This document shows positions 29,370 through 49,933 of a DNA stretch of 64,000 nt, piece after piece. How positions within the stretch are numbered: the first letter of the stretch is position 1; each line of letters starts with the position of its first letter. Source of the stretch: a virus (Duplodnaviria; Caudoviricetes); the IMG/VR virus record IMGVR_UViG_3300028591_000108, positions 77,914 to 141,913 of that record. The stretch is one strand, 5' to 3'. The position numbers and the translations under genes were made by a program. Below the pieces are notes generated by a model. That model saw only the letters and a program-made list of their open reading frames with translations, did not search any database and was not told where the DNA came from.

Positions 29370-29442
29370 CGCACGGTCGTCTAAAGGCTTAGGACGGTTG
29401 GCTCATACCCAACAAATACAAGTTCGATTCTTGTCTGTGCCA
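29370..29442 (+). tRNA. tRNA-Met(CAT), initiator-like
   Basis: Loop CTCATAC; C1xC72 mismatch. Confidence 0.8.
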
Positions 29443-29524
29443 CTTTGGTAAGGGAATCCCACCTGAGCCAACATAAGAGTGTTCGTAAGCCGTAAGCGAG
29501 GGCCGTAATACTCGCTTGCTACTT

Positions 29525-29596
29525 GGCCTTATCGTATAGAGGTTATTACATCCGGCTGTCTACCGGAAAACCAGAGTTCGATTCTCTGTAAGGTCG
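29525..29596 (+). tRNA. tRNA-Asp(GTC)
   Basis: Loop CTGTCTA; G73. Confidence 0.85.
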
Positions 29597-29599
29597 CTT

Positions 29600-29715
29600 T
29601 AGACGTATCAGCAATATTCTTCGCTTTGGGAGCCCGTCAAGTGTTGGTTCGATTCCAACCCTCCCAACTGATGGGAGGTCGCTCAATTGGTAGAAGCGCG
29701 GTTATAGTACGTCTA
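29600..29715 (+). ncRNA. Stem-CAGCAA scaffold RNA copy 2 with circularly permuted tRNA module
   Basis: TAGACGTA/TACGTCTA stem; T arm, then closed acceptor CCTCCCA/TGGGAGG, then D arm. Confidence 0.8.
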
Positions 29716-29720
29716 GTTTT

Positions 29721-29794
29721 GGCCCGGTAGCTCAGTCCAGTAGAGCGTCTGACCGTTAATCAGAAAGTCCCAGGAGCAAAGCCTGGTCGGGCCG
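29721..29794 (+). tRNA. tRNA-Asn(GTT)
   Basis: Loop CCGTTAA; atypical T loop. Confidence 0.75.
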
Positions 29795-30068
29795 CGCTAC
29801 TTCAACATTCCTTTCACCTCTGTAGCATTTGGTGGAAAAATGTTAGTGCTTGGGCACCGCACTATAAAACGTGCCCACTAATATGCCAGCAATAGAAACT
29901 CTGGTCCAGTTCCACACCTTGTTGGCAGCGTAAAAAGCAATAATAGGAGCTTCTCACAAGGAGTTTGGTACTATTACTCCACGGATACAGACCCGTGGCG
30001 GAAGGCATGACCTGAAATGAAAGGTGGCGCCCTAGCAGATGGCAAGTTCGCAATAATCTGCTATTTAT

Positions 30069-30145
30069 GCCCGATTGGTGTAATAGGTTAGCACAGCACC
30101 CTTTCAAGGTGCAGACGTGGAGTTCAAATCTCCCATTGGGTACCA
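30069..30145 (+). tRNA. tRNA-Glu(TTC)
   Basis: Loop CTTTCAA; encoded CCA. Confidence 0.85.
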
Positions 30146-30377
30146 TTCAACCACATAAAGCCTGAATTGACAGGATATGACTGGCCAGTTGAGGTCTGGC
30201 GGCAGACTGATGCGGACTTGTTGAAACATTGGTTTGTGTCTCGTGAGCGACGACAGCCGTGGTGAGGCAGCTATGCCAAAAGAGTGATACTAAAATAGCA
30301 TGTATACGGAATAGACAGACCGACCTGCTATAGCAGGAGGCACGAGGTATCCACCATATAGGCGAGGGCCTCGGTAA

Positions 30378-30438
30378 TAGGCACACGCAGCAAACCTATA
30401 AGGAACAACTTTCTATTAAAAAGTTTTAAATGTGCCTA
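30378..30438 (+). ncRNA. Stem-CAGCAA scaffold RNA copy 3 (anticodon-loop mimic ATT)
   Basis: TAGGCACA/TGTGCCTA; AACTTT-CTATTAA-AAAGTT. Confidence 0.7.
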
Positions 30439-30851
30439 GTATCTCGGTAGAAATGCCATTGCGAAGATAGCTGCCAGCAGCATCTAACGTTCTACCATAT
30501 GAAATGGCATCTTGCGCTTTCGACGCACAGTGGCAGTAGCAAGTAAAAAATAGACCACCTGGCCGTGCAATAGAGCAGTAAAGTGTACGTTAAAAAATCG
30601 GATTCTGCTATCCTACGCTAAAGCGTAATCCGCTTGCCGTAGATAAGGCTTCTCTTGGCCGCGAGGATGTTCCTCGAAATCAAGACATTTGGTCCCCGAG
30701 ACAGTAAAACAGGCATTTCTAGAGTGCAAAGATAGTTCGTTACGGGGTTACATACTATCACAAATACGGGAGTGACGAGAAGTTACCTCACTTAATACTC
30801 TACTTGACCATAGACGTATGGCGAACAAATCCTGTATTTTCTTATCTTTAT

Positions 30852-30935
30852 CCGGGTGTAGCCGAACGGCCCAGGCAACAGACTTAAAATCTGTCGGAGC
30901 AAAGCTCCTTGTGGGTTCGAATCCCACCACCCGGA
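30852..30935 (+). tRNA. tRNA-Leu(TAA)
   Basis: Loop CTTAAAA; long variable arm. Confidence 0.9.
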
Positions 30936-31036
30936 CTTTCCATTAGGTGGAGCTTGGAACCTACCGCCTTTTGGCTGTGATGTATGGGACGCCATAATTG
31001 GCGCCCTTATTTTTAAACAACAAGGAGGAATGTACT

Positions 31037-31414
31037 ATGAAGAAACTTATCGCACTATTACTAACTCTTATGCTCTGTTTTCCTGTATTCGCCTATGCTG
31101 ATGGCGAAGACGACGTTGTTTCAGATACTCACACAGAACACGTTGAAGTTTATACTCCTGTCGAACGTGGCAATTATTCTGTTTCTATTAGTTCTTCCCT
31201 TGATGGGCAGTCTAAGGTAAAAACAGGAACAAAAGTCACTCTAACTGCTCACCTATCTGGTTTCCGTGATGGAGTAGATACTTGGGAAATTACTTGGCAG
31301 GAGAATGATGGTTCAGGTTGGTCCGATGTTGGCTCCGGTAGCACCTATGACTTTAACATTGACGAAGATAATGTAAATCATAAATGGCGCGTCGTAGTCC
31401 ATGTAAAATGGTAA
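31037..31414 (+). CDS. Secreted Ig-like protein
   Basis: Signal peptide MKKLIALLL..AYA; VTLTA..ITWQ..W pattern. Confidence 0.7.
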   Translation: MKKLIALLLTLMLCFPVFAYADGEDDVVSDTHTEHVEVYTPVERGNYSVSISSSLDGQSKVKTGTKVTLTAHLSGFRDGVDTWEITWQENDGSGWSDVGSGSTYDFNIDEDNVNHKWRVVVHVKW

Positions 31415-31429
31415 TTAAGGTGAAGGAAT

Positions 31430-32910
31430 ATGAAAAAACTTATAATACTGGTATTTATTTTACTAATACCCTTTCTTGCCTTATCTGAAGAAGGTGGAGA
31501 AGAAGATATTTATTCTAATGAATATACGCATAATGTTGAAATAATTTCATATTCCTATGATGATGGAGAAGTAGTTTTTTCTGCTGATGTAGAATTAACT
31601 AATATGTTGGGTATTGTTACCATTCAACAAGATGTAAAAGTTTTTAATTATTTTTACGATAGAACTACACGCAAATATGCTGTACCGATGGAAACAACGG
31701 TGAAAAATACAGGGATGGATGCGTATTTGCGCGTATATCTTAATGCATTTCGCACCGTTAAAGCAACTGGCGAAGACGAAGCTATTGACTGGAGTCTTGT
31801 TGAAGTAGGACTATTAGATGAAAATGGTAATTTCCTAACAACTACAACTGATTATGTGTTATTGGGTGATTGCCTATATATGACACAGCCGACTCCATCT
31901 GGTCAATCTATTTATATTGATTACTATGGTTGGCTTAATAATTATCAACATTTGGCTACTAGTTCATATATTAAGACTTTACCTTCAAGTGAAGCAGTCC
32001 AAAAATATAACTTCTATCCAGACTTTACATCTAATGATCCTTGGAATAGTATTAATATTGAACAGCAAAATACTAATATTGATAATGCGGTCAGTAAGTT
32101 CGCATTAAATGTAACTATCGGTAATCAAGATGATATTAATGCTGACCCGCCAGAAGATACTGGATATAAACTGCCGGGAGATACTACTTCATTTGAAGTG
32201 ACTATTAAAATGCCAGCAACAGGATACTTATATCATTTTGTTATCATACGGGCCGCTGATGCTGCGCTGCGAGAAATCTTAACCGATGAATTAACCGTAT
32301 ATGTTATTACTGATGATGGAGAAGAACAACAAATAAATTGGTATGGCAAAGTTGGAGAATATGTAAAAGATACAATTTTAAAGTTTATTTATAAATTAAA
32401 TATTCCAGAAACTTTAAATAATCCATTTGTAGGAGATCAGTTTCAAATTAAGGATGAGTATATAGTTGTAGCAACGCCATCCCCAACTCCAACATCGACA
32501 CCAACTCCTACTCCGACACTCACTCCTACACCAACTCCAAGCCCAACTCCTACATCAACTGCTACAGCAACACCTACACCAAGCCCAACTCCAACTTCTA
32601 TACCTACAGCAACTCCAACCGCTACTCCTACACCAACATTAACTCCAACTTCAACTCCAACTATAACGCCAACACCACTCCTACTTTGGCACCGACATTT
32701 ACACCAGTTATTACTCCTGCGCCAACACCAATAGCGACGCCTATAATAACTAAGAAACCAAAGCCTACAGCGACGCCTCGGCCATCGAATATGCCGCAGC
32801 ATACTCCTGGTCCACCAATGCGTACAATTCCATTATGGATATTGGAACTTTATAAAACACCATTAGGTTTAGATATAATGTATAATCAAGTTGGAGATTG
32901 TTTTGATTAA
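31430..32910 (+). CDS. Secreted surface protein with Pro-Thr repeat; frameshift near 32677
   Basis: Signal peptide; PT repeat continues in the other frame after a 1-nt deletion; ends TPLG..VGDCFD. Confidence 0.65.
32473..32780 (+). repeat. Pro-Thr coding repeat
   Basis: Degenerate ACTCCA/ACACCA hexamers. Confidence 0.8.
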
Positions 32911-32975
32911 TATTTGACTTATTATAAAAATTTTGTTATAATTTTATTGTACCGAGGGGATGAAACCCCTCATAT

Positions 32976-33049
32976 GCTTCCATAGCTCAATTGGCCAGAG
33001 CAATCGCTTCGTAAGCGATGGGTTGCAAGTTCAAGTCTTGCTGGAAGCT
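32976..33049 (+). tRNA. tRNA-Thr(CGT)
   Basis: Loop TTCGTAA. Confidence 0.85.
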
Positions 33050-33317
33050 CTATACGCTTGGTCCGAGCCGTTCAAGAGTAAGCAAGGAACCCAGCTTACA
33101 GGATATTTCCCAACATACCATCATGCGTGGATGAAATAAGAAGAGATGGCGCCCGGTCCAACCGCAGGGCGTTATAAGCGAGCGGTTGGTAATAGTCCTA
33201 GGATCTCACAAGCAGGGACTATAATGAACGGCGTGAGCGCAAGATACTACGAGACAGATCCGGAAGGTAACAGTTCCGTTAAAGTGAAGAGCGATCGGCT
33301 TCATCTGAAAGTTTTAT

Positions 33318-33391
33318 GCCTCTCTAATCCAAATGGCAGAGATAGCACGCTAAGAACGTGTACAGTGTGAGTCCGAATCTCACGAGAGGTA
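33318..33391 (+). tRNA. tRNA-Leu(AAG), short variable loop
   Basis: Loop CTAAGAA; A73. Confidence 0.75.
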
Positions 33392-33509
33392 CGACTGTTG
33401 TTCAGCTGACAACCCAGTGGATGGATTTGACGCATCCCGTGCTACTACTGCGAGAGGGTCACGCTTAGGCTTTGCAAGCGGACCACGGCCCATGAAGGTA
33501 GCACATTAT

Positions 33510-33581
33510 CTCCGGCTAGTCTAAGGGACAGAACGTGTGGCTACGGACCATAAAATCGGCGTTCGAATCGTCGGCTGGAGA
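33510..33581 (+). tRNA. tRNA-Arg(ACG)
   Basis: Loop CTACGGA. Confidence 0.8.
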
Positions 33582-33623
33582 CTTCGCGCGAAAGCGCAAA
33601 TTCATTTTGGAGGTACCTACTAT

Positions 33624-34163
33624 ATGAATGAACCAAGACTAAAGATTCTTCCCCCATGGACGATTCTAGTAAGGAAGCTAGAAGCCTTATTTGACGGTGA
33701 TCCTCAGATTGCTTTCAATGTTGACTTTAGTGGAGAACATCCTTCTGTTGTTCTTTCCTGTAACAATGGAGATAAGGTTGCTGCACTAATGCAGATTCTA
33801 CCTGAAGAAATTAACTTTGGCAATGTTACACTAAAGGTAATGGTAGATGGAACCCCAAGCAACCGCACCTTTAAGAGTAAGGTTGAACTATTTGATACTG
33901 CTTTTTTCAAGAATCCTGCCTATGCGTATTCTGTTTGCCCTGCAGAAGAGGGATATCAGTGGATTGGCACTACTTATGTTGTATTCAACAACTGTGTTGT
34001 ACAGTTCGCAGCTGATAACCTAAATGATTGTCATGGAGTAATTAGTACTCTATATGAGACAATTGCTAGTGAACTTCTAACTGGGCCTGCAACTGAAGGC
34101 GTATTCTTCAATACTAATGTTGAGCGCGCAGGTCTTGGAATGCCGCTTGGCGAGTGGCCATAA
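33624..34163 (+). CDS. Conserved hypothetical protein
   Basis: RBS GGAGG before ATG 33624; the longer ORF-track start lies within a tRNA. Confidence 0.7.
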   Translation: MNEPRLKILPPWTILVRKLEALFDGDPQIAFNVDFSGEHPSVVLSCNNGDKVAALMQILPEEINFGNVTLKVMVDGTPSNRTFKSKVELFDTAFFKNPAYAYSVCPAEEGYQWIGTTYVVFNNCVVQFAADNLNDCHGVISTLYETIASELLTGPATEGVFFNTNVERAGLGMPLGEWP

Positions 34164-34306
34164 CTTTCCTTGAGCGGAAATTTCCGCTCGTTATGCCCAG
34201 ATGGTGAACCAGTGAACACCATCTGGTTTAAAAAAATTTAGTAAACTGAAAGAAAAAAAAATAGTTTGTTTACTTTAATAATACTCTTTATATGGAGGTG
34301 AGCGAT

Positions 34307-34913
34307 ATGAAAAAATGGGAAAAATTTTCGGATAAAGAATTAGAAATTATCGTTCAAAATAGCATTTCATATAGAGAGGTTGCACAAAAATTAGGATATG
34401 CAGAACGTAGTGGCGGTGGGTGTGATGCCGCGCGTGAAATGATTGAAGCTAAGGGTTTTAATATAGACCATTTTTTAGGTCAAGGATGGAATAAAAGTAA
34501 TTTTGATTATGAGCGTTTTCAAGCAGGTAAAGTAATTAAAAGTGCCGCTGCAATTCCAGCTTTAGTACAATTACGAGGACATAAATGTGAGAATTGTGGT
34601 GCAGAAACTTGGTTAGGAAATCCTATTCCATTAGAAGTACATCATATTAACGGTGACAGATTAAATAATACATTAGAGAACTTACAGCTGTTATGTCCTA
34701 ATTGTCATGCTCTTACTGATAATTTTAAGGGTAAAAATAACACTGGTGACAAAAAAAGTAGAAGACGAAGTATTAGTAGAAGCACTTAAAAATAGTTCTA
34801 GTATTCGTCAAGCATTAATTTCTGTTGGACTAGCGGGTCGCGGCGGAAACTATGAACGTGCTCACGAATTAATTGATAAATATAATATTACTAAATTTCA
34901 AAAAGGTGAGTAA
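34307..34913 (+). CDS. HNH endonuclease (frameshift in A-run near 34751)
   Basis: C..C, LEVHHINGD..NN..ENLQLLCPNCH. Confidence 0.8.
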
Positions 34914-34923
34914 TCACCTTTAT

Positions 34924-34999
34924 GCCAGAGTAGACAACCGGTGAAGTCCGCGCACTGAAAATGCGCTATTGATTGGTCCGACTCCAATCTCTGGCACCA
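34924..34999 (+). tRNA. tRNA-Phe(GAA)
   Basis: Loop CTGAAAA; CCA. Confidence 0.85.
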
Positions 35000-35107
35000 T
35001 AATGGATTGGGAGGTGAGCCGGTAGATGAACTTCTCCATTGGCGATGAACCAAAATCAATCCAAAATCTCCTATTGGTTGGTGCGACCCCAACTCTGGGC
35101 ACCATAT

Positions 35108-35183
35108 GCCCGTTTAGCTCAGTTGGCAGAGCTTCCGGCTTACATCCGGACGGTCGGCAGTTCAAGTCTGTCAGCGGGTACCA
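35108..35183 (+). tRNA. tRNA-Val(TAC)
   Basis: Loop CTTACAT; CCA. Confidence 0.9.
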
Positions 35184-35291
35184 AATCCTATAATAGCCAG
35201 TGATAGTATGGACACTAGGGACGCCCTTTAAAGTTGTTCGCGGTAGTGAGAATAACCTTCGCCGTGGCGAAGTAAAAGAGCCACGGGATAT

Positions 35292-35364
35292 GCGCCATTA
35301 GCTCAGCAGGCAGAGCACCGCACTTTTAATGCGGGTGTCCCGGTTTCGAGTACCGGATGGCACA
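35292..35364 (+). tRNA. tRNA-Lys(TTT)
   Basis: Loop CTTTTAA. Confidence 0.85.
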
Positions 35365-35385
35365 CTAATTATAAAGGAGATTAAA

Positions 35386-35604
35386 ATGAGAATTATTTCT
35401 GGAGCTCATAGATTGCCTGGACATGCGTTTTGTGAATGTGGCACTGAATTTGAATTTGATTACGACGAGATTACAAAGGGCAATAATAAACGACATGGTG
35501 CATATATTTATTGGTATAATTCTATTACTTGCCCAGTTTGCAAGAAAGAAATAGAGTTGCCAGATAATTTGGATAGTGTTTGTCCTTGGGTGCCAGATAA
35601 TTGA
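35386..35604 (+). CDS. Small zinc-ribbon protein
   Basis: CECG...CPVC; RBS AAGGAG. Confidence 0.65.
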   Translation: MRIISGAHRLPGHAFCECGTEFEFDYDEITKGNNKRHGAYIYWYNSITCPVCKKEIELPDNLDSVCPWVPDN

Positions 35605-35659
35605 CATTAAATAAAATTTATAGTATAATTATTTCAGTAAGAAGGAAAGGAGTTCTATT

Positions 35660-35890
35660 ATGAGAAATCCAAATCGTATTGATAAGTTTTGTGATGAGCT
35701 TAAAGCGATTTGGCATCAAGTGCCAGATTGGCGCTTTGGGCAACTGATGGAAAATATGCTTAGTGCAAGACTACAAGCAGTATCAGACCCTAATGGTTTC
35801 TTTTATACTGAAGATGAAGAATTGTTTGCTTTCTTTAAAAGTTATATGAATGAAATTATAAAAGAAGGTAGACAAAATAAAGATTGGTAA
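35660..35890 (+). CDS. Conserved phage hypothetical protein
   Basis: MRNPNRI..W..VPDWRFGQL; promoter 35601-35629. Confidence 0.7.
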   Translation: MRNPNRIDKFCDELKAIWHQVPDWRFGQLMENMLSARLQAVSDPNGFFYTEDEELFAFFKSYMNEIIKEGRQNKDW

Positions 35891-36100
35891 TTACATAATC
35901 CACCTGACATGGCTGTGACTACAAGGCGCGGAAAGGTGGCGGCAATCTCTTGCCCAAGTAAGTTGAAACGATATACACTCTTGGGATGAAAAGCCTTAAT
36001 GATGCGAAGATAGAGATATCACGTGAGTTTAGATACATGTGTGTGTAGTCGGTCTCCCTGTGGCCCGTTACGTTAGTAAGTTGGCACAGGGGAAGCTTCT

Positions 36101-36246
36101 AGGAGTGTAAGATAACGGTAGTCGCGCGGTCTCCGGGGCGATAGTGTAAAGAACACGCTAGGAAAGCAAGGGCCTAGTAATTGAAGGGCAGTACTGAGGC
36201 GCTCCACCAAAAACCGCTCGTGTTGGTTCGAATCCAGCCGCTCCTG
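36101..36246 (+). tRNA. tRNA-Trp(CCA) interrupted by a 75-nt tRNA-like insert (36135-36209)
   Basis: Exons 36101-36134 + 36210-36246 give a canonical cloverleaf with loop CTCC|AAA, A1-U72, G73. Confidence 0.85.
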
Positions 36247-36250
36247 CTTA

Positions 36251-36314
36251 AAGACTCGTCAGCAACATTTTTCAAGCATCTGACTTTTAATCTGACTAGC
36301 TATAAACGAGTCTT
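36251..36314 (+). ncRNA. Stem-CAGCAA scaffold RNA copy 4 (tRNA-Lys arm-like payload)
   Basis: AAGACTCGT/ACGAGTCTT; AGCATCTGACTTTTAATC. Confidence 0.7.
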
Positions 36315-36321
36315 GTTTTAT

Positions 36322-36395
36322 GCCTTTCTATCCCAATTGGAAGAGGAAACCGACTCAAAATCGGCTCAGTTTGGGTTCAAATCCCAAGTTAGGCA
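36322..36395 (+). tRNA. tRNA-Leu(CAA), short variable loop
   Basis: Loop CTCAAAA; two acceptor mismatches. Confidence 0.7.
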
Positions 36396-36612
36396 CTCGC
36401 GCCATATAACTTAGGCGCATGGATTACATGTCATCCTTACTATTATACAATTTATTTAGACGTGCTTGAGGGTTCCCACCCGCTGTTGAGAAGAAGCAGA
36501 AAGGGATTATGGTGAGACTCGATAATACCGTAAATACTTTCGAGAAGTATAGGACAATGTTTGAAAAGCCGGATTTCTGTAATTGGGGCGATAACACCAT
36601 CTAGTCCTATAT

Positions 36613-36686
36613 GCCCGAGTAACAGAATTGGCATATGTACGCGGTTCAGAGCCGTGGTTTTGTGGGTTCGACTCCCACCTTGGGCA
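36613..36686 (+). tRNA. tRNA-Leu(CAG), short variable loop
   Basis: Loop TTCAGAG; A73. Confidence 0.75.
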
Positions 36687-36995
36687 CTTATGTTTATCTT
36701 AGATAGGCCCAGTATACTAAAGCGATATAAAGTTCATGGGTTTCGCGTAGAGAAGATAAACATCGCGCCAAAGATACAAATTAAAATAAATATGGCGCAA
36801 TGAGTGCTGCTCCCACTCATATTACTAAAATATTATTGAAACATTACAAATGGAGCAATTTAATTAAAGATGTGCGATCGGTAGCACAAGAAATAATTCC
36901 GAAATAATAGCACGGGTTAGAAGGGCCGGAATTCTATAATTGGGGCCTAAACACCATCCTGAAGTGCTGTTATGCCCACTACTTTGGGCAATTAT

Positions 36996-37066
36996 GGGGA
37001 TATAGTATAACAGTAAAACAGTAGCTTTGCAAGCTTCAGACCGGGGAGCGTCACCCCGTATCTCCA
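36996..37066 (+). tRNA. tRNA-Ala(TGC)
   Basis: G3.U70; loop TTTGCAA. Confidence 0.8.
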
Positions 37067-37076
37067 CATTATTATA

Positions 37077-37147
37077 GGCTCCGAAATCTGGCGGCCGGAT
37101 ACTTGTCTGCAAAACTTGTTTAGTCAGTTCGACTCTGACCGGAGCCT
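37077..37147 (+). tRNA. tRNA-Cys(GCA)
   Basis: Loop CTGCAAA; U73; weak AC stem. Confidence 0.7.
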
Positions 37148-37165
37148 CAATTTGGAGGATTATTT

Positions 37166-37468
37166 ATGATAGGCAATTATAAAATAATAACATTATGTGG
37201 GAGCACCCGCTTCAAGGAGGATTTTGAGCGTGTTAACAGAGAACTTACTTTAGCGGGCAATATTGTCATCAGTGTTGGTTGTTTTGGCCATTCTGGTGAT
37301 ACTTTTACAGAGGAACAAAAAGTAATGCTTGATGATATTCATAAGCGCAAGATTGATATGGCCGATGAAATCTTTGTAATTAATAAAGATAAATATATTG
37401 GCGCAAGTACTCGTAGTGAAATTGAATATGCGATTTTACATGATAAGCCAGTGAGGTATATGGAATGA
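37166..37468 (+). CDS. DUF4406/NDT-fold-like small protein
   Basis: ITLCGSTRF..IHKRKIDMAD..YIG.ST..EIEYA. Confidence 0.65.
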   Translation: MIGNYKIITLCGSTRFKEDFERVNRELTLAGNIVISVGCFGHSGDTFTEEQKVMLDDIHKRKIDMADEIFVINKDKYIGASTRSEIEYAILHDKPVRYME

Positions 37469-37713
37469 GAAAAGGCCGCGGTATAGATCATTATTGGGAA
37501 GTAAGAAAATATTTAGGCGATATAGCTTTATATGCTCATTGCAAATGCGGATTTGAATATGCTTGTTCTTCCAATAAAAGAAAACCAGATGGAAGTGTTA
37601 GTTTTGAGCAAGAAATTACTAAGCTATACTTATATTGTCCTTATTGTGGAGCACGAAAAAAATGGTATAATGATATACCCAGAAAAATAGATAGACTTCA
37701 ATATGGCGGGTGA
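37465..37713 (+). CDS. Small zinc-ribbon protein
   Basis: HCKC...CPYC; stop lies inside the next tRNA. Confidence 0.55.
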   Translation: MRKGRGIDHYWEVRKYLGDIALYAHCKCGFEYACSSNKRKPDGSVSFEQEITKLYLYCPYCGARKKWYNDIPRKIDRLQYGG

Positions 37714-37787
37714 ACCCGGCAAGGCGTGGGACCTGTCTCGAAAACAGTGGGAGCGTAAAGCTTATGGTTCGAGTCCATCGCCCGTCG
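37705..37787 (+). tRNA. tRNA-Ser(CGA)
   Basis: Loop CTCGAAA; long variable arm; G73. Confidence 0.8.
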
Positions 37788-37793
37788 TCATAT

Positions 37794-37879
37794 GTCAAGA
37801 GAACTCAGGCGGCCCTGAGCATCCGTTGGAAGCGGATTGGTCTTGTAAAAGGGATGGAGGTCGGCACTTCCTCTTGGCG
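37794..37879 (+). tRNA. tRNA-Ser(GGA)
   Basis: Loop TTGGAAG; long variable arm. Confidence 0.75.
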
Positions 37880-37890
37880 TATTATATCAG

Positions 37891-38145
37891 ATGGAGTTGA
37901 TGTATATGAGAAATCGTGCAGAAAAACGTCATAATGATTGGAAGAAAGCAATTCGGAAACGGAAGATTGTTGAAGAAGTCTACCAGTGGCCCGAAGGATG
38001 GTATGATAACTTACATCAATATAGTAAGAATAAAGTACATTGTTCTTGCCATGTATGTCGCGGCTGGACTAAACATGGTGAAAATAATATTTCAGATAGA
38101 CGAAAACTTGAAGAAATGAAAGAACAAATACTTGACAATGAATAA
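37891..38145 (+). CDS. Basic hypothetical protein
   Basis: HQYSKNKVHCSC..C motif. Confidence 0.6.
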   Translation: MELMYMRNRAEKRHNDWKKAIRKRKIVEEVYQWPEGWYDNLHQYSKNKVHCSCHVCRGWTKHGENNISDRRKLEEMKEQILDNE

Positions 38146-38266
38146 AATTTCTGATATAATAATAATGTAAAAAGGAGATAATAGTAGAAAGAAGAGGCAA
38201 CTAAAAAGTTTGTTGCAAAAGTAACATGGTAATCATCTCCTTCTTGTGCGGCGAAAGCCGCGTTTA

Positions 38267-38396
38267 TCCACGGTGGCGGAATAGGTAGACGCTAGAAAAG
38301 CTCGGCGCTCGACAGGACAGAAGCGTAGGGTTGCCACCCTGTCGGTGGATGCACGTATGTGTTACCCATATAAGGTGCAAATCCTTATCCGTGGAA
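38267..38396 (+). ncRNA. tRNA-like RNA: Leu-type shell with about 80 nt replacing the anticodon arm
   Basis: TCCACGG/CCGTGGA acceptor, GCG-GAATAGGTAGA-CGC D arm, T arm; no anticodon arm. Confidence 0.7.
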
Positions 38397-38402
38397 TTAT
38401 AA

Positions 38403-38475
38403 CGAGAATGTGGTGTAATCTGGTAACACGGGTGCTTCGGGAGCACCAGTTGCGGTTCAAATCCGACATTTTCGA
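38403..38475 (+). tRNA. tRNA-Pro(CGG), possible 8/4 fold
   Basis: Loop TTCGGGA; CGAGAATG/CATTTTCG. Confidence 0.75.
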
Positions 38476-38480
38476 CACAA

Positions 38481-38588
38481 TAGACGGTTACAGCAATTAT
38501 TGCATACAAGGTGTCATTGGTTCAAATCCAATCTTCTCCATTGGAGAAGTAGCTCAATTGGTAGAGCAATTGATTATGAAACTGTCTA
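38481..38588 (+). ncRNA. Stem-CAGCAA scaffold RNA copy 5 with circularly permuted tRNA module
   Basis: TAGACGGTT/AACTGTCTA; T arm, CTTCTCC-ATT-GGAGAAG, D arm. Confidence 0.8.
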
Positions 38589-38595
38589 GTATTTA

Positions 38596-38688
38596 TAGGC
38601 CATTACAGCAAATTATATATAAATGGTGAAAGAAATGTTTGAGAAACATAACTGAGAAGGTTCGATCCCTTCAAATTTAAATGGCCTA
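38596..38688 (+). ncRNA. Stem-CAGCAA scaffold RNA copy 6 (ASL GAG + T arm)
   Basis: TAGGCCATT/AATGGCCTA; ATGT-TTGAGAA-ACAT; GAAGG-TTCGATC-CCTTC. Confidence 0.75.
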
Positions 38689-38810
38689 GTTTTAGTTGAA
38701 TATTCGCTCCGTTCTGGAGCTAATAGATTGCCGCGTTGGATTGCTCCTATTTGAAAGAGGCAGAGTAGTATCTGCAACTCTTCCGCGGCGTTTTTCTTAT
38801 TGGAGGAATT

Positions 38811-38996
38811 ATGGAAGATAAATTAAAAGGAATTTATGGCTGTTTAAAAATAATGGATATGATGCTTTGTAATTATACTTATGATCCATCTCATGGCGTG
38901 ATACCATTTAAATCTACACAAGAAATGGCAAAATATTTCAGAGCTATGCTACACGCAATTTTACCAGAGGAATATAGATATTATAAAGGAGAATGA
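38811..38996 (+). CDS. Small hypothetical protein
   Basis: RBS GGAGG. Confidence 0.55.
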   Translation: MEDKLKGIYGCLKIMDMMLCNYTYDPSHGVIPFKSTQEMAKYFRAMLHAILPEEYRYYKGE

Positions 38997-39081
38997 CACT
39001 ATGGCGGAATGGTAACGCACCGACCTGCTAAGTCGAGGTTGCTTGTAAAAGGGTATGCACGTTCGAGCCGTGCTAGTGTCG
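38995..39081 (+). tRNA. tRNA-Ser(GCT)
   Basis: Loop CTGCTAA; long variable arm. Confidence 0.85.
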
Positions 39082-39086
39082 CTTAT

Positions 39087-39240
39087 AGTCCCTTAGCGTA
39101 ATGGTAGCGCAGTGGACTTTCGGCTCATAGTTTATTTGGCAAAATACTTTTAAACTAGTTGAGAGATATCAAGAGAAATAGGTTCGATCCCTATTGAGCC
39201 GACGACTCCACACGTGTTGGTCCGATTCCAACAGGGACTG
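39087..39240 (+). tRNA. tRNA-Gln(TTG) interrupted by an 83-nt tRNA-like insert (39121-39203)
   Basis: Exons 39087-39120 + 39204-39240 give GTGGA-CTTT|GAC-TCCAC, AGTCCCT/AGGGACT, G73. Confidence 0.8.
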
Positions 39241-39258
39241 CTTTTAGGAGGGATTATT

Positions 39259-39582
39259 ATGGCTAAAGATGAAACTCCAATTTATGAAATCTATGTAATG
39301 AGTGAACCTTGGCATTTGGATTCTGATAAGTTTCCAAGCTGTGGTCATCGAGAACGAGTAGGTTTTTACTACGAAAAAGATACTGCTATTCGCGCAGTAG
39401 AAGAAAATTGGTGTGACCTTCAAGACTATTATGCTCAAGCCGCAGAGGTTTGTAAAGTAGAACCTGGTCTTTATTCCGTTCCCTCTCGGCGTGAATATTG
39501 GTACTTCCTATGGAACCAACAAGAAAAGAAATTTGAACTCGCGCGAAAGCCTAAGCTTGGATTATGGGAGGCAGGGTATTGA
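39259..39582 (+). CDS. Hypothetical protein
   Basis: RBS AGGAGG. Confidence 0.65.
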   Translation: MAKDETPIYEIYVMSEPWHLDSDKFPSCGHRERVGFYYEKDTAIRAVEENWCDLQDYYAQAAEVCKVEPGLYSVPSRREYWYFLWNQQEKKFELARKPKLGLWEAGY

Positions 39583-40022
39583 AACTTTATACATCTTATT
39601 GGGCGCAAGTGCGTAATTTTCCAAAAAACCTAGTCGGCCTTTCAACAACTATATGGAACCCACGCTGGAGAAAAATGGGTAAAGATGCGCGTGGAGTAAT
39701 ATGTGTTGATTGCCCTCCTTTTAAACCAGGACATAGCTGCGATGGTTTATGTAATGGGAAGTGTAATCCAAAACATCCAGAAGATTGCTTATTCCTCCAA
39801 CACTATAAAGCTCAACTAGATAAAATTAATCCAATTACAATTCAAAATAGTTTAGGGAAACTTGCTGCACAAATTTGTCATGATGAACATCTACCAGATG
39901 TAGATTTTGCTTTTTTATTTTATGAAACACCAACTAATCCTTGTAGTGAGCGAGTAATGGTACAACGTTGGTTCCAAGAACATGGATATGAAATTAAAGA
40001 ATGGCAGAAACTAAAATCTTAA
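39579..40022 (+). CDS. DUF488-like hypothetical protein
   Basis: KLYTSY..YE.P...CSER..W. Confidence 0.5.
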   Translation: MKLYTSYWAQVRNFPKNLVGLSTTIWNPRWRKMGKDARGVICVDCPPFKPGHSCDGLCNGKCNPKHPEDCLFLQHYKAQLDKINPITIQNSLGKLAAQICHDEHLPDVDFAFLFYETPTNPCSERVMVQRWFQEHGYEIKEWQKLKS

Positions 40023-40230
40023 AGCAAGCCTTAGCTTTTAATAAAAGTTTTATGCGTGCTTGTTATCATCCTAAAGCTCGTGTGCGAAAAAAGAATTATA
40101 AGCGCGCGAAACATATTATGAATTGGCAATGTAAAATTTATGGACATATGCTAGTTCCACAAAAATGGTTAAATATTTGACTTTATCGAAAATTTCTGGT
40201 ATAATATAAATACAGAAAGGAGAGATAGAG

Positions 40231-40593
40231 ATGCGTAAGTATAGCATGAAGTCCCATAAGCGTAAAAATCATCAGCGTTGGTTTAATCAGTATGTGCGTT
40301 ATATCAACAAGAACATAGAAGAGGATGACCTTTGGCTTGGGCGTTTCTGTGTAAAACAGAAACGCACAAAAATGGAATGGTTTGAAGACGGTAGCGGCGG
40401 TCTTATGACCGCAGAGCTTATTATGTGGGATAAAAAAACCCATACTGTTCGCGTTGGATGGTATAATGGCCTTGACATGGATTGGAAATTTTGGCGCGAT
40501 TTTAACCAGTTTATTATTGAAGATTGCAAAGTCTGGGAAGAAGAACCTAATGTGCGCGAAAACCGCGTCGACTATCGAAAGGAGCGTAAATGA
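40231..40593 (+). CDS. Hypothetical protein
   Basis: Promoter and RBS upstream. Confidence 0.7.
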   Translation: MRKYSMKSHKRKNHQRWFNQYVRYINKNIEEDDLWLGRFCVKQKRTKMEWFEDGSGGLMTAELIMWDKKTHTVRVGWYNGLDMDWKFWRDFNQFIIEDCKVWEEEPNVRENRVDYRKERK

Positions 40594-44050: not shown

Positions 44051-44305
44051 ATGATCTATCGCCGGAAGTCAGAGACAGTTGAAGCAATCATGTTTGACGG
44101 CTCTAATTTAGAGCAAATTCGGCAGTTCCTGAAAGATTATTTCAAATATGGCCATATTATGGAAGATGGACATTTATTTTTAATGCTAAATAGTAATAAT
44201 GCGCTTTATAGCGCACAGGTTTATGATTATATTGTAGTAGATAAAATGCATGGATTTACTATGAATAAGAAAGCCTTTGAAAATACTTATATCCCGCGGT
44301 CTTGA
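44051..44305 (+). CDS. Hypothetical protein (YR.K..VEA family)
   Basis: MIYRRK..VEAI.FDG..FE.TY. Confidence 0.65.
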   Translation: MIYRRKSETVEAIMFDGSNLEQIRQFLKDYFKYGHIMEDGHLFLMLNSNNALYSAQVYDYIVVDKMHGFTMNKKAFENTYIPRS

Positions 44306-44334
44306 TAAAGACTAAGATGAAAAGGAGAAAAAAA

Positions 44335-45828
44335 ATGAACGAACTACTAAAGAATCTGAAGACTGAAACTAATTACCGTTATACCGAGAACGGCGCCCTG
44401 ACTCATAAGTCTACGCTAAATAAAGTGCTGGATATGTTTGCTATGGGCGGTTCTATGCGTAATCGCTCTGACGATGATGTTATTAACATGTTCAAGCAGG
44501 CATACGAAGAGGATAGGACTCTTGCGCTAAAGTGTCTCTTCTATCTGCGCGATGTACGCGGCGGTGCAGGTGAGAGACGATTTTTCCGCATTTGTATCAA
44601 GTGGCTTGCTAATGAATGTCCGGAAGAGATGGAACACCTAATTCCCCTCATTAGTGAATATGGCCGCTACGACGACCTTTTTGAGCTATTTGGCACTCCT
44701 TGCGAAGCCGCGATGATAGGATATATTTTCCATGTCCTTAATAAGAATGAAGATCATCTTATTTATAAATGGATGCCTTCGATCAATGCATCTTCTAAAG
44801 AAAGCAAAATTCGTGGACGTAAATTCGTGCATGAATTCGGCATGACTGAGCGTCAGTATCGTCAGATGCTTTCTGAAGGCCGCAAAGCCTGTCACTTGGT
44901 CGAAACTCTTATGAGCCAGAATCAGTGGAACCAGATTGCATTTGATAAGCTGCCTTCTCGCGCAGGTCTTCTATATAAGAATGCTTTCATGCGCCGTGAG
45001 GAAACTAAAGAACGCTATGCTGAGTTTATGTCCCGCAAGGACACTAAGGTAAATGCGAGTGTACTGAATCCTGTTGAAATCGCGCACCAGATTCTTGGTA
45101 CGTGGAGTACTCCCTCTGCTACTGAGCGTCAGGCTTGGCAGAAGTATTGGGATAATCTGAAAGATTATTACAATGGCCGCGAAGAGCCTGGCATTGCAGT
45201 AGTTGATGTCAGTGGCAGTATGAGTGGCACTCCTATGGAAGCCGCAGTTTCTATGGGTGCGTATATTGCCGAACGCGGGAAAGGCCCGTTCCAGAATCAT
45301 TTTATTACTTTCAGCGCTAATCCGCAGCTAGTAGAATTTGAAGGCGTAGATATCTATGATAAGTTTAAACGTGCGGTACGTGCAGACTGGGGACAGAATA
45401 CGAACCTTGAAGCAGTATTTGATATGCTGCTGGAGACTGGTCTACGCAATCATGTGCCAGATGCCGAAATGCCGAAGACGATTTACATATTTTCGGATAT
45501 GGAATTCGATCACGGTTTGACTTGCGGCGCGCGTTCCCTTGATCGTTGGGACTATAATATGCGTTCTATGAATCGCTCGCAGATTGATACACTCATTGAG
45601 GCTAAGACTAAAGAATGGATGTGGGCAGGATATACCGCACCGAGAGTAATCTTCTGGAACCTCAATGCTCGGCAGCCCAACATTCCCGCTATTGGCCCGG
45701 GATTCTCCTATTGTAGCGGTTTCTCTATGAGCGCGCTTGAAGGAGTACTTTCCGGTAAAGATGGTATCAAAATGATGCGAACTGTACTAGAAGGAGAGCG
45801 CTATGCGCCAATTTCTAGTGTTCTATAA
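44335..45828 (+). CDS. DUF2828 family protein (TROVE/Ro60-like helical domain + vWA)
   Basis: TENGA..ST..LDMF, FYLRDVRGGAGER, MIDAS DVSGSM, IFSDMEFD, IFWNL. Confidence 0.8.
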   Translation: MNELLKNLKTETNYRYTENGALTHKSTLNKVLDMFAMGGSMRNRSDDDVINMFKQAYEEDRTLALKCLFYLRDVRGGAGERRFFRICIKWLANECPEEMEHLIPLISEYGRYDDLFELFGTPCEAAMIGYIFHVLNKNEDHLIYKWMPSINASSKESKIRGRKFVHEFGMTERQYRQMLSEGRKACHLVETLMSQNQWNQIAFDKLPSRAGLLYKNAFMRREETKERYAEFMSRKDTKVNASVLNPVEIAHQILGTWSTPSATERQAWQKYWDNLKDYYNGREEPGIAVVDVSGSMSGTPMEAAVSMGAYIAERGKGPFQNHFITFSANPQLVEFEGVDIYDKFKRAVRADWGQNTNLEAVFDMLLETGLRNHVPDAEMPKTIYIFSDMEFDHGLTCGARSLDRWDYNMRSMNRSQIDTLIEAKTKEWMWAGYTAPRVIFWNLNARQPNIPAIGPGFSYCSGFSMSALEGVLSGKDGIKMMRTVLEGERYAPISSVL

Positions 45829-45910
45829 ATTCTCTCTTTCTGAAAAGTCAAGCAATCAAATGCTTGACTTTTTTCATATTTTTTGATATAATTAATTTAT
45901 AAGGAGGAAG

Positions 45911-46672
45911 ATGATGGATATTATAGAAGCAGTTAAAAGACATCATCAATGGGTAAAAGATAAAGGTTATGAAACAGTAATGACTGTCTTAATTGGCAGC
46001 CAAAATTATTGTTTAGACAATGAAAATAGTGATATTGATACTTTTACTTTTATTTTTCCTACCATTGACGATTTATCAGCCGCGTGCGAACCGGATAGTG
46101 GTGAATTTGAAGTCGAAGATGGAAAATGTATGTATAAAGATATTCGACTTGCGCTTAATCTTTTAAAGAAAGCATCTCCAAATAGTGTTGAATGCTTTGT
46201 CGGAGCGTATAAATATTATGAACCTAAATATGCTACTATCTTAGAAAAATATTTAGATAATGAGTATATTTTAAATAAAATGGTACATTGCAATTATTCT
46301 CATATGTTATATGCAATGGCTGGAATGGCACATCAGCTTACTAAACGCAATATGCCTGCCGGAAAACGCTATTCTCATGCCTTACGTCTATATAGTATGA
46401 AAGATAACTTTTTGAATTTTACAGATACATCTCAATTGCTTAAATTATTGCCTCGTGATTATCAAGAAGCTCTACATGCTAAGAGAGATACATTGGAATC
46501 TCATAATGCATATTATAATGATGGCTGTGAAAGTATTGCAAATCTTTTAGACGATTGTCGCAATGAGTTTAAAAAAACAGTTATTCAACAAGCGATTGAA
46601 ACAGAAGGAAAACAATTAATTGAATTAATGCAATATGAATTAATGCATTATTATATTAAATATATTTTATAA
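45911..46672 (+). CDS. Pol-beta-type nucleotidyltransferase
   Basis: GSQNY.L....SDID, PN..E. Confidence 0.75.
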   Translation: MMDIIEAVKRHHQWVKDKGYETVMTVLIGSQNYCLDNENSDIDTFTFIFPTIDDLSAACEPDSGEFEVEDGKCMYKDIRLALNLLKKASPNSVECFVGAYKYYEPKYATILEKYLDNEYILNKMVHCNYSHMLYAMAGMAHQLTKRNMPAGKRYSHALRLYSMKDNFLNFTDTSQLLKLLPRDYQEALHAKRDTLESHNAYYNDGCESIANLLDDCRNEFKKTVIQQAIETEGKQLIELMQYELMHYYIKYIL

Positions 46673-46683
46673 GAGGAGACATA

Positions 46684-47088
46684 ATGGATCTAAAAATTCA
46701 CAATGGGATGCGCGTCCTATATAAACACAATGGGCAATGGTGCGTTGGAAAACTTACAAATCAAGAGTCGCCAGTGCTTACTGAAAAGGGATTATTTGTA
46801 TTTGTTATTCCTAAAAACTATATGGATGCAGAAGAAGTACCATATCTGCATGATGTAGAAATTAATGATTTGTTCCTAGAAGCGGTCCCAGTAGAAGATT
46901 GGATGGCTCAGTATGGCTATCTAATGCCAAAAGAAGATTATATTAATTTCATTAAAAGCGAAGACTTTGATAAGAATGTTGAACGTGCGTATGTATCAGA
47001 TGGTGAATATTATTATTATAATGTAAACAAATACTCAGAACAATGGTTGAATAAACAGCCATTTGATTTTATAGTGAGGGAAGAATGA
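46684..47088 (+). CDS. Hypothetical protein
   Basis: RBS GAGGAG. Confidence 0.65.
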   Translation: MDLKIHNGMRVLYKHNGQWCVGKLTNQESPVLTEKGLFVFVIPKNYMDAEEVPYLHDVEINDLFLEAVPVEDWMAQYGYLMPKEDYINFIKSEDFDKNVERAYVSDGEYYYYNVNKYSEQWLNKQPFDFIVREE

Positions 47089-47687
47089 AACCGAAATTAA
47101 CATGGCATAATATCCTAGGCCATTGGAAAACAATTCGTACTCATAGAAAATGGGTTAGATATTATTGCAATCTTGCTGGTATCCGTTGGCGCGGATTAAA
47201 ACATGATTTATCGAAATATTCGCCCACTGAATTTTTTGAATCCGCGCGTTATTGGACTGGGACTAGTTCTCCAATAAACGAAGCTAAGAAACAGCAGGGC
47301 TATTCGCGCGCATGGCTACATCATCGCGGCCGCAATCCTCATCATTGGGCATACTGGGCAGATAATTTTAGCGAAGGGCTGACAGTATATCCGATGCCCA
47401 TGAATGATTTTGTAGAATTGGTTTGTGATTTTCTCGCGGCTGGTCGGGCTTATAGTGGTGACATGTTTTCATATAGTAATGAGCGTCTTTGGTGGCTTCA
47501 TGAGCGTGATCATGGTTCGCGCGCAATGAACGAGAAAAATAAGAAAATGCTTGATGTTATTTTTTCTGACTTAGAGTTCGCGGATAATCATCTGCTGAGT
47601 GGTTGTCCTACTGGACTATTAACCATGACTCCAGAAACCCTAATTAAAACTGGTTACATTCAAGAAGTTTGGAGGGCTAATCAATGA
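47085..47687 (+). CDS. HD-like protein (DUF5662-like)
   Basis: HDLSK, WLHH...NPHH, E..CD. Confidence 0.7.
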   Translation: MKPKLTWHNILGHWKTIRTHRKWVRYYCNLAGIRWRGLKHDLSKYSPTEFFESARYWTGTSSPINEAKKQQGYSRAWLHHRGRNPHHWAYWADNFSEGLTVYPMPMNDFVELVCDFLAAGRAYSGDMFSYSNERLWWLHERDHGSRAMNEKNKKMLDVIFSDLEFADNHLLSGCPTGLLTMTPETLIKTGYIQEVWRANQ

Positions 47688-47905
47688 AGTGGATTAAGCG
47701 CGAAATAAAATTAGAAGATGTCGAAGCGATAGCTTCCCAAGGCATGGCAATGGCTAAAGCAGGAAATCCACTTGTAGAGAAACTTAGATGTGTATATCAA
47801 CTTGAAAATGATCCTGTAATCTATATGATTCCGTTATTAGATTATATAGATACAGTACCAGACCAAAAAATCATCTCCTTTCAACTTTGTCAAATGGTCG
47901 AATAA
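47684..47905 (+). CDS. Hypothetical protein
   Basis: ATGA coupling. Confidence 0.55.
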   Translation: MKWIKREIKLEDVEAIASQGMAMAKAGNPLVEKLRCVYQLENDPVIYMIPLLDYIDTVPDQKIISFQLCQMVE

Positions 47906-47962
47906 CCATTTGACTTTTTTTAAATTTATGTTATAATTTTTATAGAAAGAGAGGTAAGAGGA

Positions 47963-48682
47963 ATGGTCGCAAAAACTTATCAAAGTTTAGAAATCCAAGG
48001 AGAGCCTTTTAAAGAGAATAAGCGTTTGTATGTTAATGTGCTTACTGCCAAGGGGCCAAAAAAAGTCCGCTGGTATACAGATGCTGAGTATCGACGCATG
48101 TATCCTGATGCGCCAGTAGAAAATAAATTAATGGACTTCAATGCTAAACATGCTTTTGGCTTTGACGAAAAAGGCTATATTACTTTATATAAAGGAGACA
48201 AGCGAGTAGTAGAGAGGTGGGCTGAAAATGACCGTACTAATATTTGGCGTAATACTACTTTTGGGTATTATACTCCTAGTAAATTTCCCACGCCCAAAAC
48301 CGTAAGCGGAATTGAACCTATTCAGCTAAAGTGGGAACAAGTACAAGATTATGAAGACAGGATGAAACCCCATGAAGAAGTCGCTAAGTTGGTCAGCCAT
48401 CTTCTTGGTACTGATGTTATTAGCAGCAGTACCTACCAAGGACAAGAAAATGACTGGCTTGAAAAAGAAGTTGTTGTTAAAGAGAATCTCGCGCGTGAAG
48501 ATCATTTTGGCGAAAAGCATACGCATTTTATGCGCGATGCCGAAGGTAATACTTATGTATGGGAAACAGGCACCAAAAATCTTGAAGTTGGTATGGCTCT
48601 TAAGCTGAGAATGAAGGTTAAGACGCATAAAGAAATTAATGGAGAAAAGTGTACTGTAGTTTGGTACTGTAAAATTATATGA
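47963..48682 (+). CDS. Hypothetical protein, C-terminal OB-fold-like
   Basis: Promoter and RBS; DAEGN.YVW..G..V K.H.E. Confidence 0.6.
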   Translation: MVAKTYQSLEIQGEPFKENKRLYVNVLTAKGPKKVRWYTDAEYRRMYPDAPVENKLMDFNAKHAFGFDEKGYITLYKGDKRVVERWAENDRTNIWRNTTFGYYTPSKFPTPKTVSGIEPIQLKWEQVQDYEDRMKPHEEVAKLVSHLLGTDVISSSTYQGQENDWLEKEVVVKENLAREDHFGEKHTHFMRDAEGNTYVWETGTKNLEVGMALKLRMKVKTHKEINGEKCTVVWYCKII

Positions 48683-48885
48683 TTGTTTTAAGTAATTACT
48701 ATAAAGGACTTGTATGCCGCTGTAATAACTGCGGCGCACTACTCGGATATAAGCCAGAGGATGTACATAACAATTCTTATGTAACATGTCCGCGATGCAA
48801 ATTTGAAATTTTAACTAAAATGCAACTTGATTATGATGGGCTGGTAAGAGAGGAGAAAAAAGATGGCGAAGCTGTGGTTCGGTAA
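48679..48885 (+). CDS. Zinc-ribbon protein
   Basis: CNNC...CPRC. Confidence 0.6.
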   Translation: MIVLSNYYKGLVCRCNNCGALLGYKPEDVHNNSYVTCPRCKFEILTKMQLDYDGLVREEKKDGEAVVR

Positions 48886-49144
48886 TTCGTTTGGCAAGAG
48901 ACGAATAATTGCAGAATGTAATACTTTTGCGGAAGTAATGACTGAAATTGATAAGTTTATTGCTGATGCGAATGATAGATGGCCGAATAAGAGGCCATTC
49001 AAGAGATACTATACTCGTATTTGGAATGAGAATGGCGAATCTGTATTTGATGTAGGCAGCCATACAGAATTTTTCTACTTTGACCTACCTTATCCAGAAG
49101 ATGAACATGGTTTTGTCGATGAAAGCGAGGTATTTAATAAATGA
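48863..49144 (+). CDS. Hypothetical protein
   Basis: FDVGSHTEFF motif; RBS. Confidence 0.65.
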   Translation: MAKLWFGNSFGKRRIIAECNTFAEVMTEIDKFIADANDRWPNKRPFKRYYTRIWNENGESVFDVGSHTEFFYFDLPYPEDEHGFVDESEVFNK

Positions 49145-49867: not shown

Positions 49868-49933
49868 AGTAATTGACATTTTCTAAATTTATGATATAAT
49901 TATTATGTAAGAAAGAGAGAAAGGATGATTTAA

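Follow-up and report, generated by a model that had tools for sequence, protein, structure and literature searches.

The DNA analysed here (the window) is the final 64 kb of a 141,913-bp IMG/VR virus record with an estimated completeness of 78%, and the sequencing runs that contain it come from the gut or rumen of sheep, cattle and goat. About 25 tRNA genes, detected with ARAGORN and Rfam, form a plus-strand array between 27.5 and 39.3 kb of the window. Within this array, positions 39087-39240 are confirmed as a tRNA-Gln(UUG) gene with an insert of 83 nt between anticodon positions 35 and 36. Exon 1 (39087-39120, plus strand) is exactly 34 nt long, as a preliminary description of this DNA had stated, and contributes the 5′ strand of the acceptor stem, the D arm, the 5′ strand of the anticodon stem and loop positions 32-35 (CTTT). 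Exon 2 (39204-39240, plus strand) continues with loop positions 36-38 (GAC), the 3′ strand of the anticodon stem, the variable loop, the T arm (loop TCCGATT), the 3′ strand of the acceptor stem and a discriminator G (G39240). In the outer tRNA, AGTCCCT (39087-39093) pairs with AGGGACT (39233-39239) to form the acceptor stem and GTGGA (39112-39116) pairs with TCCAC (39207-39211) to form the anticodon stem. Small open reading frames flanking the gene had no match in Pfam or PHROGs.

The insert (39121-39203, plus strand, 83 nt) is itself shaped like a tRNA, running from +1 of a 7-bp acceptor-like stem to A73-C74 and lacking CCA. The perfect acceptor, D arm and canonical T arm that had been reported for it are all present in the sequence, in the order of a 7-bp acceptor stem without mismatch (CGGCTCA/TGAGCCG), a D-like arm, a degenerate middle and the T arm ATAGG-TTCGATC-CCTAT. 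Against the Rfam tRNA model RF00005 the segment 39121-39202 scores 43 bits (gathering score 29, E 1.8e-6), and ARAGORN labels the insert 'Pyl(cta)'. However, there is no canonical anticodon arm: in the ARAGORN structure the loop AACTAGT has A33 instead of U33 and the weak stem consists of U-A and U.G pairs only, while the energy fold pairs the anticodon region into a single long hairpin, and the earlier wording of a 'scrambled anticodon region' is fair on all of these grounds. In the energy fold of the 154-nt precursor one cloverleaf is enclosed by another (z = -3.87), and none of 200 shuffled sequences folded as well. The insert also contains the substrate shape of RNase P and RNase Z, namely a 12-bp minihelix made of the 7-bp CGGCTCA/TGAGCCG and 5-bp ATAGG/CCTAT stems and closed by the canonical T loop TTCGATC.

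The anticodon call CTA from ARAGORN, an Rfam score within the range of the phage's other tRNAs and the use of TAG as a sense codon in the genome could together suggest that the inner element is a functional second amber suppressor tRNA(CUA), with the outer tRNA serving as a processing scaffold or co-expressed partner. This is very improbable, however, since the loop is without the near-universal U33, its stem is weak, rich in U.G and paired away in the energy fold, and the GC content of the element is 37%, compared with 51-67% in the other tRNAs. Moreover, inserts found at the same position in related phages include mere minihelices with no anticodon arm, and the phage already has a canonical suppressor at 27590-27675 (plus strand), with the loop CTCTAAA, a U1-A72 pair, G73 and a long variable arm. 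The presence of this gene shows that amber decoding is independent of the 83-nt insert. Its U1-A72 pair and G73 resemble the Gln identity elements recognised by E. coli GlnRS, and it is solely from these acceptor features that we infer Gln as the amino acid placed at TAG codons. Only a subset of the genes uses in-frame TAG as a sense codon. Frames 3-5543 (with 20 in-frame TAGs), 9423-12026, 18793-21786 and 53132-55237 are long, are open only when TAG is taken as sense, carry 15-21 TAGs each and have no Pfam family, unlike the TAG-free genes, which are enzymes. Such a pattern agrees with recoding that is limited to a single class of genes.

The array contains several other RNAs of interest. Three tRNAs missed by ARAGORN were found by Rfam (29721-29794, 36996-37066 and 37077-37147) and are an Asn(GTT)-like tRNA with C33 (loop CCGTTAA), Ala(TGC) and Cys(GCA). 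At 38268-38396 lies a 129-nt tRNA-like element with acceptor TCCACGG/CCGTGGA, a D arm and the T arm TAAGG-TGCAAAT-CCTTA; it has no Rfam match, is missing in the related genome G001, and has its middle (approximately 38294-38366) swapped for different sequences in relatives from four of the four runs compared. This is followed by a conserved RNA (38481-38591) ordered as a tRNA 3′ half and then a 5′ half, which matches the Rfam YrlA (Y RNA-like) family over the full model with 34.9 bits and E 1.6e-4, under the gathering score of 69. After it comes a weak tRNA-like element (38609-38680, 28.4 bits), and G001 has conserved counterparts of both. The gene for a possibly Ro-like DUF2828/DUF7788/vWA protein (44302-45828) lies 6 kb downstream of the YrlA-like RNA, and the RNA and protein could constitute a phage Ro-Y RNA pair.

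The local sequence around the insert permits three junctions, leading to Gln (CTTT|GAC), Glu (CTTTC|AC) or Arg (CTT|CGAC). Related loci were collected with an exon 2 pattern, which returned two IMG/VR contigs (L001 and L002), and with an exon 1 pattern, which returned 14 metagenome contigs. Close orthologs without an insert (L012, L023, L017, L018 and L024) have the loop CTTTGAC or CTTTGAA; in L012 and L023 the uninterrupted Gln gene reads CTTTGAC with exons identical or near-identical to those of the window, and the L012 tRNA scores 64.7 bits against RF00005. The exon 1 sequence of the window is identical to that of related alleles and runs straight into GAC in intron-less relatives. Contigs of relatives from four rumen or gut runs show exon 1 joined to GAC or an uninterrupted Gln gene with a compensatorily changed anticodon stem. 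The Glu(ttc) junction, placed one base to the right by ARAGORN with introns, and the Arg(UCG) junction are both ruled out by the intron-less orthologs and sister alleles, which give CTTTGAC. Only the split into CTTT and GAC recovers the ancestral loop, hence the inserted DNA is exactly 39121-39203, and joining 39120 to 39204 produces the Gln(UUG) loop, as originally proposed, rather than that of Arg or Glu.

With the inserts removed, all 189 of 189 stem positions form standard pairs (four stems in nine distinct alleles), and there are many compensatory double changes across the nine alleles, including in the anticodon stem formed between exon 1 and exon 2. The exon pairing on which the preliminary description had staked its reading is conserved at the orthologous loci. 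In the assembled contigs of four runs, two of which are RNA libraries, no 39120 to 39204 joint with exon 2 of the window allele was listed. The end of one RNA-library contig, exactly at 39204, was not counted, since an assembly-graph branch between alleles would produce the same. The intron-less forms present in the runs are alleles and not spliced RNA, since they also occur in DNA runs. Use of the open reading frame 31430-32734 as a protein anchor for syntenic loci found no relatives, and a blastn comparison of 36000-40000 with GenBank phages returned a trivial tRNA-Leu match only.

Among related rumen phages, the tRNA-Gln gene (acceptor AGTCCCT) carries four unrelated inserts, in addition to the intron-less forms. 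Allele b (L001, L002, L020 and L022) has a 43-nt minihelix consisting of a 7-bp stem, a linker and a T arm, inserted after position 34 and ending in the tail ACCA. Allele f (L021) has a 76-nt tRNA-like insert (Rfam, 29.3 bits) after position 34 with the tail GCCA, and allele e (L016 and L025) an 86-nt tRNA-like insert, also after position 34, with the tail AT (or A, the boundary being ambiguous by one base). Allele c, that of the window, has the 83-nt tRNA-like insert after position 35 with the tail AC. Removal of every Gln insert at the boundaries fixed by the loop results in CTTTGAC, with boundaries that are unique in three of the four and determined to ±1 nt for the 86-nt insert.

A second nested gene in the window, tRNA-Trp(CCA) at 36101-36246 (plus strand; ARAGORN with introns), is divided into exon 1 (36101-36134, 34 nt), an insert (36135-36209) and exon 2 (36210-36246). 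The Trp insert is tRNA-like, 75 nt long, and extends from G1 of a 6-bp GGGGCG/CGCTCC stem, which includes a G3.U70 pair, to ACCA. As had been observed from the outset, the Gln insert is tRNA-shaped yet unrelated to it in sequence. The tRNA-Trp gene is uninterrupted in G001 and G002, and other samples contain the intron-less joint (36134 to 36210) in their DNA runs. Each of the four Gln inserts, like the Trp insert, has its 5′ boundary at +1 of the terminal helix (for the 86-nt insert it can be placed there) and a short tail at the 3′ end. The ends of a tRNA itself are asymmetric in this same way.

Presence and absence at these sites are precise to the base, with intron-less alleles of both Gln and Trp and alternative inserts at the same site. 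Since the Gln and Trp inserts are variable, and a tRNA-Arg gene that is intact in the window is split in G001 and G002, inserts in the tRNA array are gained and lost with base precision. Such presence and absence among close relatives looks more like the behaviour of a mobile or selfish element than that of an obligatory regulatory device. The tRNA-Arg(ACG) gene of G001 and G002 contains, after position 36, a 470-nt insert (L006:859-1401, minus strand, corresponding to G001 20859-21401) that consists almost wholly of a gene for a PDDEXK_5 (I-Ssp6803I-type) endonuclease, without a group I core or a tRNA-like shell; the uninterrupted window allele is at 33510-33582. A free-standing HNH endonuclease gene (34292-34789) lies within the array between tRNA-Arg and tRNA-Phe, and may be the driver of insert gain and loss. 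G001 also has a tRNA between Asp and Glu (25901-26019, minus strand) with a 47-nt hairpin or minihelix-like insert whose boundaries are ambiguous and for which both Asn GTT and Thr GGT are possible; its tail, ACAA(T), is as in contig L088 (see below). The related rumen phage contig L016 encodes a tmRNA (2052-2402, 71 bits).

Inserts of this kind recur outside the immediate relatives. IMG/VR was searched for pairs of T loops separated by 26-34 nt, a distance expected from nested tRNAs only, and the matches were then passed to ARAGORN with introns and a boundary parser. Clean nested cases among the matches listed, all on unrelated contigs, interrupt tRNA-Ile (L057, insert tail TCCA), tRNA-Lys (L071, ACCA), tRNA-Gln (L126, GCCA; L107, ACCA), tRNA-Pro and a Lys or Thr tRNA (L088, ACAA), tRNA-Arg (L055, where the inner element is a canonical Phe-like tRNA with the tail ACCC) and tRNA-Asn (L075, T). 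The allele b minihelix shows homology with the L057 and L071 minihelices (linker GGGTAT) and a looser homology with that of L126 (linker GGAAT), and the T loop TTCAACT is common to all four. The usual rule is an intron that runs from +1 of a 7-bp helix through a short tail, mostly of 4 nt, and ten other inserts, including that of the window tRNA-Trp, have the 7-bp helix (6 bp in Trp) and a 4-nt tail.

The Gln insert is a member of a recurrent and polymorphic class of tRNA-shaped or minihelix-shaped inserts in the tRNA genes of large, often recoded phages, and the class is probably mobile. The view that recurrence favours a mechanism over an accident is strengthened by the four inserts in one Gln gene and by the others in Ile, Lys, Pro, Arg, Asn and Gln tRNAs. 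The same survey speaks against the special tie of Gln and Trp to amber recoding that had been suggested alongside it, as other isoacceptors are also interrupted, Trp relates to opal rather than amber recoding, and the suppressor tRNA(CUA) is a separate gene. A looser link between tRNA introns and recoded phages is possible, given that a 2026 survey of jumbo phages found tRNA introns mostly in alternatively coded phages and noted that introns 'could encode another tRNA' (PMC13037316). The regulated or nuclease-evading maturation of the two tRNAs that had also been suggested is a mere possibility.

The insert could also be a selfish, tRNA-like mobile element which sits in the anticodon and is never spliced, leaving the Gln gene dead or yielding only the inner RNA and tRNA halves, with the conservation of the exons reflecting a recent insertion. 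Its presence and absence among close relatives are consistent with such an element, as are the singleton status and atypical tail of the window insert, the supply of tRNA-Gln by the host in any case, and the homing-type endonuclease genes of the tRNA array (the HNH gene of the window and PDDEXK_5 in G001). However, the four independent inserts in one gene all have exons that rebuild a perfect 7-nt loop, exon substitutions keep the structure, and many phages retain members of this widespread class (PMC6784885, PMC13037316), which is unexpected for insertions that simply kill genes. We therefore regard the absence of splicing as unlikely.

Established types of intron do not account for the insert. 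A group I intron is rejected because 83 nt compares with a need for more than approximately 200 nt and the RF00028 core was not detected; neither this core nor any other Rfam ribozyme was found in 27000-40500 at E<=1, in a search for which a tRNA-Leu(UAA) intron of L012 served as the positive control. That intron (L012:87-279, 68.8 bits) is a classical group I intron, and it follows that self-splicing and tRNA-shaped introns coexist in this phage group. An archaeal or eukaryal intron is likewise rejected, as no bulge-helix-bulge (BHB) can be drawn, the junctions are located where two coaxial helices flank an internal loop, and the EndA family PF01974 is absent from G000, G001 and G002. Searches of the incomplete phage records for RtcB, T4 Rnl1, a splicing endonuclease, an RNase Z-like metallo-beta-lactamase and a CCA-adding enzyme found none of them.

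The window does encode a cluster of RNA-repair genes (44302-53125), comprising the DUF2828/vWA protein, an RlaP nucleotidyltransferase, a DUF5662 protein, an Rnl5-type RNA ligase and a metallophosphoesterase. The ligase (50230-51462, plus strand) has the Rnl5 architecture of an N-terminal OB fold and a C-terminal nucleotidyltransferase domain (PHA02142, 77 bits; PF09414, 77 bits; PF21189), and its best solved relative is the Naegleria gruberi RNA ligase NgrRnl (5cot_A, E 2e-31, residues 198-408); a diverged ligase encoded by G001 shares both domains. NgrRnl joins nicks with 3′-OH and 5′-PO4 ends (PMC4408790). The nucleotidyltransferase (45911-46672, plus strand; PF10127, 28 bits) belongs to the RNA-ligase-associated RlaP family, which extends the 3′ ends of damaged RNA by one or two nucleotides and returns tRNAs to function (PMC12776372). 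The phosphoesterase (52283-53125) was assigned to the Metallophos family by Pfam. Beyond the cluster, the window encodes a DNA ligase (57350-58483), ClpP and PIN-PhoH.

Taken together, these features have led us to a tentative explanation, to which we give a chance a little short of even, in which host RNase P and an RNase Z-type enzyme excise the insert and the phage Rnl5-type ligase joins the exons. A tRNA-shaped intron of 83 bp would have entered the tRNA-Gln(UUG) gene between anticodon positions 35 and 36, and its acceptor-like stem would stack on the T arm to form the 12-bp minihelix read by tRNA end-processing enzymes. Host RNase P would cleave at 39120|39121, the 5′ end of the insert, to leave a 3′-OH on exon 1, and a host RNase Z-type endonuclease would then cleave at 39203|39204, just past the acceptor stem, to leave a 5′-phosphate on exon 2. 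The 3′-OH and 5′-P ends from such cuts match the ends that are joined by an Rnl-type ligase. While the halves of tRNA-Gln were held together by the outer acceptor, D and T interactions, the ATP-dependent ligase would reseal the anticodon loop as CUUUGAC, and the expected spliced junction is ...GGACTTT|GACTCCACACG. Two points of background count against the sealing step and the link to the ligase: Rnl5 ligases have been characterised on nicked duplexes rather than on anticodon loops, and large phages commonly have RNA ligases irrespective of introns.

The tail of the window insert poses a further problem. The textbook site of RNase Z cleavage is after the N73 discriminator. The 5′ end of the window insert is flush at +1, but its tail has 2 nt (AC) compared with 4 nt (NCCA or ACAA) in most inserts, and an RNase Z cut after N73 would give the window allele an 8-nt loop (CTTT + CGAC), whereas a fixed rule of a 4-nt tail would give it a 5-nt loop. 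Where CCA is encoded, Thermotoga RNase Z and, in some cases, RNase E cleave exactly after it (PMC7479834, PMC5291269). No single known cutting rule covers all alleles. Alleles c and e, with tails of 2 nt, can pair U(-1) with A73, and the precursor energy fold does so, bulging C39203; speculatively, cleavage at 39203|39204 would result if the enzyme cut behind the first base left unpaired. It is also possible that the window allele is mis-spliced or dead. The 83-nt insert was found in this record alone, a 20-mer from its T arm and acceptor having no second copy in IMG/VR, and this too counts against excision by RNase P and RNase Z.

Alternatively, the intron may be spliced through a different protein route. 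The 2-nt tail is at odds with simple RNase Z rules, the RNA-repair set of the phage is broader than a ligase (RlaP, Metallophos and PIN-PhoH), few of the genes close to the tRNAs can be assigned to a family, and the 470-nt tRNA-Arg insert of G001, with PDDEXK_5 and no tRNA-like shell, needs another means of removal. Nevertheless, a route of this kind is improbable, as the incomplete phage records contain neither RtcB nor a splicing endonuclease that could be found, the junctions show no bulge-helix-bulge motif, and it leaves unexplained why unrelated inserts mimic the ends of a tRNA, flush at 5′ and with a short tail at 3′.

Excision by RNase P and an RNase Z-type enzyme followed by ligation would share elements with several known systems. 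Group I introns such as that in tRNA-Leu (UAA) also target the anticodon loop and are polymorphic or mobile, with homing endonucleases nearby, although the insert described here is far too small and its structure is that of a tRNA mimic rather than P1-P9. Archaeal and eukaryal introns, removed by EndA or TSEN and sealed by RtcB or Trl1, are similarly short, are not self-splicing and lie in or near the anticodon loop, and removal and ligation by enzymes are proposed here as well. However, they are located at position 37/38 instead of 35/36, and their cleavage leaves a cyclic phosphate and a 5′-OH, in contrast to the 3′-OH and 5′-P predicted here. The proposed role of a tRNA-shaped module, purely as a signal that directs cleavage by RNase P and RNase Z, has counterparts in mitochondrial tRNA punctuation and in the MALAT1 mascRNA, and the proposed resealing of a broken anticodon loop by a phage ligase recalls repair by T4 Rnl1 and Pnk, although the ligase here is of the Rnl5 type and not Rnl1. 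The proposal would merge the RNase P/Z processing signal with T4-like loop repair into splicing within a tRNA.

A close counterpart is found in the tRNAs of Lak megaphages, which carry 'enigmatic' introns with no known mechanism (Devoto et al. 2019, PMC6784885). The two cases have in common an amber-recoded gut phage as carrier, an insert within a tRNA anticodon loop, a prediction of the intron itself as a possible tRNA, and exact boundaries of presence and absence between related genomes. In contrast to the 540-kb Lak phages, where Thr and Tyr tRNAs are interrupted, the present case is a Gln tRNA in a rumen phage of approximately 142 kb or larger that belongs to another lineage. Beyond what is available for Lak, the junction here is fixed by a series of four allelic inserts together with the intron-less forms, and an Rnl5-type candidate for the sealing enzyme has been identified.

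The window insert is a further member of a published class that has had no mechanistic explanation, and its sister alleles are unusually informative. Self-splicing, as in group I introns, is generally regarded as the sole means by which tRNA introns are removed in bacteria and phages. Somewhat more doubtfully than for the locus itself, we suggest that there may be a third way of splicing tRNAs, in which RNase P and an RNase Z-type enzyme would excise tRNA-shaped introns and a phage ligase for 3′-OH and 5′-P ends would reseal the loop. The Gln anticodon would then be a hot spot for the repeated insertion of unrelated tRNA mimics, and the inserts may persist because they break the target of a homing endonuclease or anticodon nuclease while still being removable. 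The Gln locus makes this idea testable, since it offers an insert-free form, four unrelated inserts with the tails ACCA, GCCA, AT and AC, and a candidate ligase in the same genome. If true, the removal of introns by borrowed RNase P and RNase Z together with a repair ligase would represent a new splicing pathway, and would explain the 'enigmatic' introns of Lak and other recoded jumbo phages.
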